DNA from: Escherichia coli
Lineage (GTDB): Bacteria; Pseudomonadota; Gammaproteobacteria; Enterobacterales; Enterobacteriaceae
Reading direction: 5' to 3' (one strand)
Length of the DNA stretch: 64,000 nt
NCBI RefSeq assembly: GCF_003018115.1
Contig: NZ_CP027457.1
This document shows, piece after piece, positions 24,001 to 27,000 of the stretch. The stretch's first letter is position 1; every line of letters starts with the position of its first letter. A program made the position numbers.

Positions 24001-27000
24001 CGGATTGGGGGTCGCAGCAGCAGGAAATTATACTTATGATGCGAACAGTAAATCTTATTCCTTCAATGCCAATGGTCTGACGGGCGCAAATACCGCAACT
24101 GCACTCAAAGGTTACTTGGGGACAGGTGCTAACACCGCTAAAATTTCTATCGGTGGTACAGAGCAGGAAGTGAATATTGCCAAAGATGGCACTATTACAG
24201 ATACGAATGGTGATGCGCTCTATCTGGATATTACCGGCAACCTGACTAAGAACTATGCGGGTTCACCACCTGCAGCAACGCTGGATAACGTATTAGCTTC
24301 CGCAACTGTAAATGCCACTATCAAGTTTGATAGCGGTATGACGGTTGATTATACTGCAGGTACTGGCGCGAATATTACAGGTGCATCCATTTCTGCAGAT
24401 GACATGGCCGCAAAACTGAGCGGAAAGGCGTACACTGTTGCCAATGGTGCTGAGTCTTATGACGTTGCTGCAGTTACGGGGGCTGTAACAACTACAGCAG
24501 GTAATTCACCTGTGTATGCCGATGCAGACGGTAAATTAACGACGAGTGCCAGTAATACGGTTACTCAGACTTATCACGAGTTTGCTAATGGTAACATTTA
24601 TGATGACAAAGGCTCGTCACTGTATAAAGCTGCAGATGGCTCTCTGACTTCTGAAGCTAAAGGGAAATCTGAAGCAACCGCCGATCCCCTGAAAGCTCTG
24701 GACGAAGCGATCAGCTCCATCGACAAATTCCGCTCCTCCCTCGGTGCGGTGCAGAACCGTCTGGATTCCGCAGTCACCAACCTGAACAACACCACTACCA
24801 ACCTGTCCGAAGCGCAGTCCCGTATTCAGGACGCCGACTATGCGACCGAAGTGTCCAATATGTCGAAAGCGCAGATCATTCAGCAGGCCGGTAACTCCGT
24901 GCTGGCAAAAGCTAACCAGGTACCGCAGCAGGTTCTGTCTCTGCTGCAGGGTTAATCGTCGTAAACTGATTAACTGAGACTGACGGCAACGCCAAATTGC
25001 CTGATGCGCTGCGCTTATCAGGCCTACAAGGTGAATTGCAAATTATTGAATTTGCTCATTTTTGTAGGCCGGATAAGGCGTTTACGCCGCATCCGGCAAC
25101 ATAAAGCGCAATTTGTCAGCAACGTGCTTCCCCGCCACCGGCGGGGTTTTTTCTGCCTGGAATTTACCTGTAACCCCCAAATAACCCCTCATTTCACCCA
25201 CTAATCGTCCGATTAAAAACCCTGCAGAAACGGATAATCATGCCGATAACTCATATAACGCAGGGCTGTTTATCGTGAATTCACTCTATACCGCTGAAGG
25301 TGTAATGGATAAACACTCGCTGTGGCAGCGTTATGTCCCGCTGGTGCGTCACGAAGCATTGCGCCTGCAGGTTCGACTGCCCGCGAGCGTGGAACTTGAC
25401 GATCTGCTACAGGCGGGCGGCATTGGGTTACTTAATGCCGTCGAACGCTATGACGCCCTACAAGGAACGGCATTTACAACTTACGCAGTGCAGCGTATCC
25501 GTGGCGCTATGCTGGATGAACTTCGCAGCCGTGACTGGGTGCCGCGCAGCGTGCGTCGCAACGCGCGTGAAGTGGCACAGGCAATAGGGCAACTGGAGCA
25601 GGAACTTGGCCGCAACGCCACGGAAACTGAGGTAGCGGAACGTTTAGGGATAGATATTGCCGATTATCGCCAAATGTTGCTCGACACCAATAACAGCCAG
25701 CTCTTCTCCTACGATGAGTGGCGCGAAGAGCACGGCGATAGCATCGAACTGGTTACTGATGATCATCAGCGAGAAAACCCGCTACAACAACTGCTGGACA
25801 GTAATTTGCGCCAGCGGGTGATGGAAGCCATCGAAACGTTGCCGGAGCGCGAAAAACTGGTATTAACCCTCTATTACCAGGAAGAGCTGAATCTCAAAGA
25901 GATTGGTGCAGTGCTGGAGGTCGGGGAATCGCGGGTCAGTCAGTTACACAGCCAGGCTATTAAACGGTTACGCACTAAACTGGGTAAGTTATAACGTCAG
26001 TAAATGCCGCACTTTAACTTTGACTACCAGGAGTTCTTAATGATGGTGCAGCACCTGAAAAGACGGCCATTAAGCCGCTATCTTAAAGACTTTAAACACA
26101 GCCAGACCCATTGCGCGCATTGCCGTAAATTACTCGATCGCATTACCTTAGTTCGCGACGGCAAAATAGTGAATAAAATCGAGATTTCCCGCCTGGACAC
26201 GCTGCTTGATGAAAATGGCTGGCAAACGGAACAAAAATCATGGGCGGCATTGTGCCGATTTTGCGGTGATTTACACTGCAAAACGCAGAGTGATTTTTTC
26301 GATATTATCGGCTTTAAGCAATTTCTTTTTGAGCAAACTGAAATGAGCCCTGGTACGGTGCGTGAATATGTCGTTCGTTTGCGCCGTTTGGGGAATCATC
26401 TACACGAGCAAAATATTTCCCTCGATCAGCTGCAGGACGGTTTCCTTGATGAAATCCTCGCCCCGTGGCTGCCTACCACCAGCACCAACAATTACCGCAT
26501 TGCGTTACGGAAGTATCAACACTATCAGCGTCAAACGTGTACCGGACTTGTGCAGAAATCCTCCAGCCAGCCTGCTTCTGATATATATTAAATAAGAATA
26601 AGATGTAGCGGAGTTGTTTTTGTGTTTACAAACAATGGCTCTACACTGCAAACAGACATAACAACATTCGGGGTGAATATGAAATTAGCACATCTGGGAC
26701 GTCAGGCATTGATGGGGGTGATGGCCGTGGCGCTGGTTGCGGGCATGAGCGTTAAAAGTTTTGCAGATGAAGGTCTGCTTAATAAAGTCAAAGAGCGCGG
26801 TACGCTACTGGTAGGGCTGGAAGGAACTTATCCGCCGTTCAGTTTTCAGGGGGATGACGGCAAATTAACCGGTTTTGAAGTGGAATTTGCCCAACAGCTG
26901 GCAAAACATCTTGGCGTTGAGGCGTCACTAAAACCGACCAAATGGGACGGTATGCTGGCGTCGCTGGACTCTAAACGTATTGATGTGGTGATTAATCAGG

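Follow-up and report, generated by a model that had tools for sequence, protein, structure and literature searches.

That repetitive extragenic palindromic (REP) sequences lie at operon 3' ends in E. coli is textbook knowledge, and where such a sequence follows a flagellar gene the question arises whether it is generic punctuation of DNA and messenger RNA or part of something more specific. We asked this for a stretch of 64,000 nucleotides (nt) from Escherichia coli (contig NZ_CP027457.1, RefSeq assembly GCF_003018115.1; hereafter the window). The first-pass annotation had placed REP sequences, or bacterial interspersed mosaic elements (BIMEs), immediately downstream of the flagellin gene fliC and of cheZ, and had read both as targets of DNA gyrase and integration host factor (IHF), as stabilisers of mRNA 3' ends and as possible hotspots of recombination or insertion. 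Our analysis makes it highly probable that the fliC-side element, one BIME-1, forms the body and the seed of the small RNA (sRNA) FliX, and that the cheZ site is a decayed REP pair. The earlier observation is largely right, its interpretation is generic and the features are of kinds already known; what we add, namely that the FliX seed stems from a repeat and that the element is polymorphic among strains, is modest.

REP units were sought by fitting alignment on both strands of the whole window, with 20 dinucleotide shuffles as the control, and also by blastn-short. The Y, Z1 and Z2 consensus sequences used are those which we take to be given by Bachellier and Ton-Hoang. Their lengths agree with those in PMC8266576. 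Downstream of fliC the following elements were delimited:

24998-25098, no strand assigned: BIME-1 REP pair, made up of a Z1 REP, the L linker (36 nt) and a Y REP in inverted orientation
24998-25027, minus strand: Z1-type REP (29/30 to the Z1 consensus, E 2.8e-10, fitting score 0.93)
25028-25063, no strand assigned: L linker of the BIME-1, AT-rich, 36 nt
25039-25051, minus strand: IHF-consensus-like site, ATTCAATAATTTG, with one mismatch to WATCAANNNNTTR
25064-25098, plus strand (the other strand in the Bachellier convention): Y-type REP (34/35 to the Y consensus, E 3.6e-13, fitting score 0.94)

The pair reads TGCCTGATGCGCTGCGCTTATCAGGCCTAC, then 36 AT-rich bases, then GTAGGCCGGATAAGGCGTTTACGCCGCATCCGGCA, and its REP arms are inverted repeats of each other. 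The best shuffle scored 0.47, against 0.93 and 0.94 for the Z1 and Y units. Outside the fliC pair one cheZ site alone exceeds the shuffles, and the full REPs in the 64 kb are those of the fliC pair only. The GTAG of the Z1 unit is read on the minus strand and appears as CTAC at the plus-strand end (25024-25027; an 'iREP' in the fliC transcript), and that of the Y unit occupies 25064-25067. Folded alone, the Y REP is predicted to form GCCGGAU-AA-GGCG-UUUA-CGCC-GC-AUCCGGC, with an AAxGC internal mismatch; GTAG and the AA-GC bulge are hallmarks of E. coli REPs (PMC8266576). The sequence prerequisites for binding and cleavage by TnpA_REP (RAYT), GTAG plus bulge, are present at fliC and absent at cheZ.

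The units are dispersed. Queries containing the fliC REPs were matched in 5,425 of 5,426 complete E. coli genomes, at a median of 27-29 places per genome, and a 64-nt query (Z1 tail, L and Y head) found a copy with at least 80% coverage in 5,425 of the 5,426, at a median of 19 places. Where the fliC copy is missing, the best match of this query lies at another locus with 85-89% identity, e.g. cgtA-dacB, pfkA-sbp or livF-ugpB. BIME-1 has been defined by inverted z1 and y REPs, a long conserved L linker, occurrence as a single copy and a frequent IHF site (PMC3333891). With these elements (also RIP/RIB) the fliC site shares the inverse z1 and y units, a conserved L with a candidate IHF-like site, the non-tandem single copy, outer flanking motifs common to other copies and an extragenic position near a terminator. 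No structural difference was found, and the copy is special only by its place, in the fliC 3' untranslated region (3'UTR) directly upstream of the terminator. The site is a single complete, canonical BIME-1 of the E. coli REP family, flanked by outer motifs, which bears out the earlier identification of a REP/BIME after fliC. Motifs with one mismatch to the IHF consensus occur in the window as often as by chance (63 observed, 62 expected), and IHF binding at this L linker, suggested by analogy with the BIME-1 family, is best treated as a lead. The K-12 MG1655 and W3110 RefSeq records contain no annotated REP features, and an Rfam 15 scan of the whole window returned no REP or FliX family, only C0465 and three tRNAs.

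The same 3'UTR is known as an RNA. In the K-12 RefSeq record a noncoding RNA, fliX (b4827), is annotated at 2001912..2002106, and its counterparts in the window are:

24959-25152, plus strand: FliX small RNA, the whole fliC 3'UTR, 194 nt here and 195 nt in K-12, starting 4 nt past the stop codon
25048-25152, plus strand: FliX-S, the processed, more active form, 105 nt, with its 5' end taken from primer SM673 (GAATTTGCACATTTTTGTAGGCCGG)
25112-25126, plus strand: FliX seed, UUUGUCAGCAACGUG, in which bases 25119-25121 are those of the M1 mutation
25130-25152, plus strand: intrinsic terminator of fliC and FliX, with 7 G-C pairs, loop ACC and T6 (terminator scan)

The 5' end of FliX was placed by the cloning primer SM044 (PMC10578931, supplementary oligonucleotides), and the M1 seed mutation is that of oligonucleotide SM644, which changes GCA to CGT (PMC10578931). 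The window sequence is 98% identical to K-12 FliX, with five substitutions (24960, 24965, 25031, 25042 and 25056) and one T fewer in the tail; two of the substitutions fall in the 5' leader and three in the L linker, and the REPs, seed and terminator stem are unchanged. Locus and boundaries are likewise those of K-12 FliX and FliX-S, the difference being that the flagellin gene to which the RNA is attached is of H41 type in this strain, not H48. What is known of its expression, targets, seed mutation and binding by Hfq comes from the K-12 literature: there, FliX is sigma-28-dependent, processed from the fliC mRNA and bound by Hfq in co-immunoprecipitation (Melamed et al., eLife 2023, PMC10578931). 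In K-12, both FliX and FliX-S reduce the levels of fliC mRNA and of flagellin, repress genes of the S10 operon (rplC, rpsS and rpsQ) and cut the number of flagella; FliX is ~200 nt long, and FliX-S, of ~100 nt, 'includes one of the REP sequences downstream of fliC' (PMC10578931). A duplex is predicted between FliX 25112-25126 and K-12 rpsS nt ~246-262. The fliC-side REP pair is most of this known RNA, an element already annotated and already known. The generic reading of the pair stands for its REP/BIME identity and misses the specific one, since the 3'UTR is transcribed and the pair makes up most of FliX.

How far the repeat extends bears on where the seed comes from. An exact-pattern scan for the L-Y junction in species-representative genomes gave 61 loci, in Escherichia and Pseudocitrobacter, which together with E. 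coli loci fetched earlier make 71 other BIME-1 copies. Conservation against these copies rises from a background of 0.1-0.3 to 0.5-0.9 between ~24975 and ~25126, and when three further BIME-1 loci of E. coli are aligned to the 3'UTR of fliC, homology continues past the REPs on both sides. The whole unit is then:

Approximately 24975-25126, no strand assigned: complete BIME-1 unit with outer motifs, whose ends behave as terminal inverted-repeat-like sequences

Since the family homology spans ~24975-25126, the FliX seed is included in the repeat, and FliX resolves into a 16-nt leader, one BIME-1 and the fliC terminator; the BIME-1 accounts for ~150 nt of the 194. For the right outer motif of BIME-1 the consensus reads GAACAAAGCGCACTTTGTCAGCAATCTGAGG, and the 11-mer of the FliX seed, TTTGTCAGCAA, is the consensus of this motif; in 13 of the 71 other BIME-1 copies the 11-mer is present unchanged at the same offset, and in 32 with at most two mismatches. 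A direct repeat, TGACGGCAACG and TGTCAGCAACG, at 24981-24991 and 25114-25124, flanks the REP pair with a spacing of 133 nt, its right copy overlapping the FliX seed; it may be a mere likeness of the outer ends of the BIME-1.

The neighbourhood of the repeat is also recurrent. Among 67 distinct BIME-1 copies (loci L012-L076 plus the window, fliC counted), 25, the fliC copy being one of them, have a terminator-like hairpin, T run included, that begins 9-34 nt past the Y REP, and in 23 it does so at 24-34 nt, adjoining the outer motif at a nearly constant offset; such a hairpin was found in only 3.4% of shuffled flanks. In 26 of the 67 copies a terminator-like hairpin lies on the opposite side of the BIME-1, so that the figure is ~37-39% for one side or the other. 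The terminator sequences differ between BIME-1 loci, and the terminators are therefore local and outside the repeat. These data suggest that BIME-1 copies insert, or persist, immediately upstream of intrinsic terminators. The copy in the pfkA 3'UTR has the same layout as FliX-S.

A wider reading, put forward tentatively and with somewhat more doubt than confidence, is that FliX is a repeat-born, strain-variable regulator, and that other BIME-1 copies could be the source of a family of 3'UTR RNAs like FliX, or of competitors, with a common seed. It is supported by three observations: a single BIME-1 insertion beside the fliC terminator supplies the FliX body and seed, FliX is absent from about one third of complete E. 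coli genomes, and a module made of the Y REP hairpin, the outer motif CUUUGUCAGCAAUCUG and a local intrinsic terminator recurs at other loci such as pfkA and obgE/cgtA. Pairing of FliX with the complementary left ends of other BIME-1 transcripts was considered as well and is not supported: within one part of the published FliX target list, obtained by RNA interaction by ligation and sequencing (RIL-seq), the entries are mostly sites in coding sequences and 5'UTRs, and the intergenic regions and 3'UTRs, in which BIME-1 copies lie, are not obviously over-represented.

The scan also returned arrangements and hosts outside the usual pattern. L-Y junctions occur in tandem in Escherichia sp. MOD1-EC7003 (five copies at 115/230-nt spacing and three copies at 230 nt) and in a Pseudocitrobacter metagenome-assembled genome (MAG; three copies at 82 nt), the arrays lying at L067 366-973, L064 8033-8525 and L023 2134-2330; BIME-1 has been described as single-copy (PMC3333891), unlike these arrays. 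The L-Y pattern is further present on short contigs assigned to the non-enterobacterial Collinsella sp. (MAG; L055, 3,920 nt), Desulfosporosinus sp. OT (L022, 262 nt) and Methylobacterium frigidaeris (L076, 261 nt), and the Collinsella contig has a fliC-type seed and terminator as well. These contigs, with their E. coli-type copies, are probably E. coli contamination of the assemblies.

The first-pass annotation had set the fliC copy beside a strain-variable flagellin gene, and the element itself proves to vary among strains. With the fliC intergenic region as query against the 5,426 complete E. coli genomes, the full 3'UTR region was found in 3,506, and ~35% of genomes are without the element; these are raw counts in which some lineages are heavily sampled. 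In genomes that do not have the fliC BIME-1, homology resumes exactly at 25130, the first base of the terminator stem, and in the four short-form genomes inspected the stop codon is followed by ~19 nt and then the terminator. When the long form is set against the short one of Ecol_542, the extra DNA is seen to follow TAACCTG, which agrees with the BIME-1 family boundaries. Long and short forms do not strictly match flagellin size, as a flagellin of 350 amino acids (aa) occurs both with the long form, in MIN14 (labelled O7:H4), and with the short form, in Ecol_542. Among carriers the REPs are nearly invariant and seed alleles exist, e.g. TTTGCCAGCAA in EBJ001 and GMM076. The strict pattern scan of species representatives recovered no fliC-linked BIME-1 copy in the other Escherichia species that it matched, a scan which diverged linkers would escape. 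In E. coli O111:H8 TW05614 the fliC 3'UTR is short, without FliX, and fliA is annotated as a frameshifted pseudogene (locus L005, 846-1566).

The predicted folds suggest how a BIME-1 could give rise to FliX-S. The full 3'UTR folds into one long hairpin, in which Z1 is paired with Y, followed by the terminator hairpin (-74 kcal/mol, z = -4.8), and the outer flanks pair as well (CUGACGG with UUGUCAG). In the minimum free energy (MFE) fold of the full-length RNA, the apical loop is AUUG in the L linker, and the last base of this loop, 25048, is the 5' end of FliX-S. In the predicted fold of FliX-S the Y REP refolds on its own as a 5' hairpin. We propose that the BIME-1, located between the fliC stop codon and the intrinsic terminator, would be transcribed as a 3'UTR from the sigma-28 fliC promoter, and that its two REPs and outer motifs would pair into a single long hairpin. 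The 5' end of FliX-S coincides with the last base of the AUUG loop, and a cut within this loop, which is AU-rich and lies at the apex in the L linker, would release FliX-S and leave a fliC mRNA ending in the Z1 hairpin. In FliX-S, a Y REP hairpin would then stand at the 5' end, the right outer motif of the BIME-1 would supply the seed in single-stranded form (UUUGUCAGCAACGUG), and the fliC terminator and its U tail would make the 3' module that binds Hfq. The Z1 hairpin on the upstream fliC fragment could serve as a classic REP barrier to 3' exonucleases, the Y hairpin may be similarly protective, and FliX in this strain would presumably behave as in K-12.

Downstream of cheZ the picture differs. 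Here the scan delimits:

59904-59968, no strand assigned: REP-like pair, degenerate and inverted, with tails fused and no GTAG
59904-59937, plus strand: palindrome 1, Z2/Y-like, without a CTAC tail, starting 8 nt past the cheZ stop codon
59940-59968, minus strand: REP 2, Y-like, inverted, with GTAG replaced and the tail fused to REP 1

Palindrome 1 has 15-nt arms that are 87% complementary and matches the Y consensus at 27/35 and the Z2 consensus at 28/37 positions; its score of 0.46 equals the shuffle maximum, i.e. chance level by sequence. It is nevertheless predicted to form a stable RNA hairpin (z = -3.8) with a continuous stem. REP 2 has a local match of 22/24 (E 3e-4), a global match of 28/35 and a score of 0.60, above all 20 shuffles. 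GGTC and CGCC stand where GTAG is expected, and neither half has the AAxGC bulge. At megablast sensitivity the region is found at one place per genome, without dispersal. The earlier claim of REP palindromes after cheZ holds in part: it is roughly right in that a remnant derived from REPs is present, with a Y-like second half, while the first half is at chance level by sequence and the copies, for want of GTAG, bulge and dispersal, are no REPs in the strict sense. The cheZ-flhB spacer is identical to that of K-12, and the REP-like pair is its variable part among strains: in the LF82 allele more of the canonical tail and linker is kept, and in that of ECOD1 19 nt are deleted. From these sequence features, the site is read as a decayed REP pair, a BIME remnant of Z2/Y-like type.

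If the cheZ pair acts at all, it probably does so in RNA form only, as a hairpin with which the tar-cheZ transcript ends. A terminator scan found no intrinsic terminator between cheZ and flhB (59850-60120), and no T run follows the hairpins. REPs at most 15 nt from a stop codon are reported to lower translation of the upstream gene (summarized in PMC12306157), and the cheZ hairpin, at 8 nt, lies inside this distance. Candidate roles would be a barrier to decay, a partial Rho-dependent stop, or damped cheZ translation under this 15-nt rule. Like REP325 (yjdM-yjdN) and other 3'UTR REPs acting as terminators or stabilisers, the pair is presumably a transcribed REP hairpin past a gene with no adjacent intrinsic terminator (preprint 10.64898/2026.03.23.713779), and by analogy a REP325-like terminator or stabiliser mode is likely. 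In contrast to the cheZ pair, which is degenerate, without GTAG and single-copy, REP325 is a multi-unit canonical array. In E. coli FDAARGOS_944 (L011), cheZ and the DNA upstream of it are missing and dgt adjoins the flhB promoter region; homology to the window is regained near 59995, which lies downstream of the REP-like pair, and flhB is annotated with an internal stop.

Several points weigh against the explanation given here for the two sites. The functional evidence for FliX all comes from K-12, and the fliC element is entirely missing from ~35% of complete E. coli genomes, which means that it is dispensable. The 5' end of FliX-S is the cloning boundary chosen by the authors of the K-12 study rather than a mapped cleavage site. 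On the idea that processing frees the seed from the left outer motif, the accessibilities computed with ViennaRNA point both ways: the mean probability of being unpaired over the 15-nt seed is ~0.54 in FliX-S and 0.46 in FliX, and for the M1 core it is 0.16 in FliX-S against 0.47 in FliX. As seed accessibility is no better in FliX-S, the folds leave the higher activity of this form unexplained. For cheZ, palindrome 1 is indistinguishable from chance by sequence alone.

Other explanations were set against these data. That both sites are generic REP/BIMEs with mainly DNA-level roles (IHF at the L linker, gyrase, a recombination or insertion hotspot) and non-specific stabilisation of mRNA 3' ends is a reading that we regard as unlikely. 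The L linker of BIME-1 is reported often to contain an IHF site and REP sequences to be bound by IHF, Pol I and gyrase (PMC3333891), at 25039-25051 the fliC linker has its site one mismatch from the IHF consensus, local roles of REPs as terminators or stabilisers find support in a 2026 preprint (10.64898/2026.03.23.713779), and the presence/absence polymorphism fits a plastic site. However, the fliC copy has a specific and, in K-12, experimentally supported RNA function as FliX, the IHF motif is no commoner than chance, fliC already has a strong intrinsic terminator 32 nt past the Y REP, and the cheZ copies are without the GTAG and bulge of canonical REPs. The fliC BIME-1 could also be a selfish or neutral insertion beside a terminator, resembling a transposable element of the miniature inverted-repeat type (MITE), with FliX activity that is incidental and of little selective value in natural strains. 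The genomes that have a 19-nt spacer instead of the element, the occurrence of both forms with 350-aa flagellins and the variation of the seed among carriers agree with this, and the adjoining terminator-like hairpins in 25 of 67 copies, so rare in shuffled flanks, suggest an insertion preference rather than a locus-specific design. Against it, phenotypes were tested in K-12 with a mutation of 3 nt in the chromosomal seed, and the number of flagella changes on overexpression (PMC10578931), and carriers keep both REPs and most of the seed highly conserved; we consider this explanation very unlikely.

For cheZ alone, the palindromes might not derive from REPs at all and instead form a locus-specific hairpin (Rho-dependent or attenuating, insulating flhB from the tar operon), resembling a REP by chance. 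Its occurrence at one place per genome, the missing GTAG, the chance-level score of the first half and the location in the most variable part of an otherwise conserved spacer would suit such a hairpin. They have to be set against a second half that beats all shuffles when compared with the Y consensus (0.60 against at most 0.47; E 3e-4), two halves inverted as in a BIME, and the LF82 allele with its more REP-like tail and linker, which make an origin independent of REPs improbable. A decayed REP pair at cheZ, and at fliC a BIME-1 that provides the body and seed of FliX, remain the preferred reading.

A REP hairpin inside a stable small RNA is also found in SroC, C0362 and C0664 (PMC12306157). 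FliX differs from these in that its seed coincides with the outer motif of the repeat and in that a whole BIME-1 is present. FliX does not occur in that survey of REP-containing sRNAs (0 occurrences in PMC12306157). In the literature searched we found no statement of the repeat origin of the FliX seed, of the 65/35 split among genomes or of the wider reading of FliX as a repeat-born, strain-variable regulator; the eLife paper notes only the REP in FliX-S. The seed of a regulator of flagella and ribosomal proteins being the conserved outer motif of a mobile-looking repeat shows how a 3'UTR sRNA can arise through a repeat dropped before a terminator. Moreover, with ~35% of complete E. coli genomes lacking the regulator, what has been concluded in K-12 on the timing of flagella synthesis may not apply to every strain.

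The genes next to the two sites place them in the flagellar region:

23276-24955, plus strand: fliC, encoding a flagellin of 559 aa in an H41-type strain, with a TAA stop codon at 24953-24955; its BLAST matches are annotated as FliC/FljB family flagellin
59252-59896, plus strand: cheZ, the last gene of the tar-tap-cheRBYZ operon, with a TGA stop codon at 59894-59896; the cheZ-flhB region is 100% identical to K-12

Downstream of them, fliA starts at 25275 and flhB at 60098. The gene order of the window is the reverse complement of the K-12 fli/che/flh region, and by BLAST the fliC-fliA segment is 100% identical to that of O169:H41 strains, e.g. F9792. Elsewhere in the window, the C0465 sRNA gives a full-length Rfam match at 53473-53550 on the minus strand (111.6 bits, E 1.7e-20), and a cluster of three tRNA genes lies at 34947-35245 on the plus strand, the K-12 W3110 counterparts of which are tRNA-Gly, tRNA-Cys and tRNA-Leu, adjoining pgsA.

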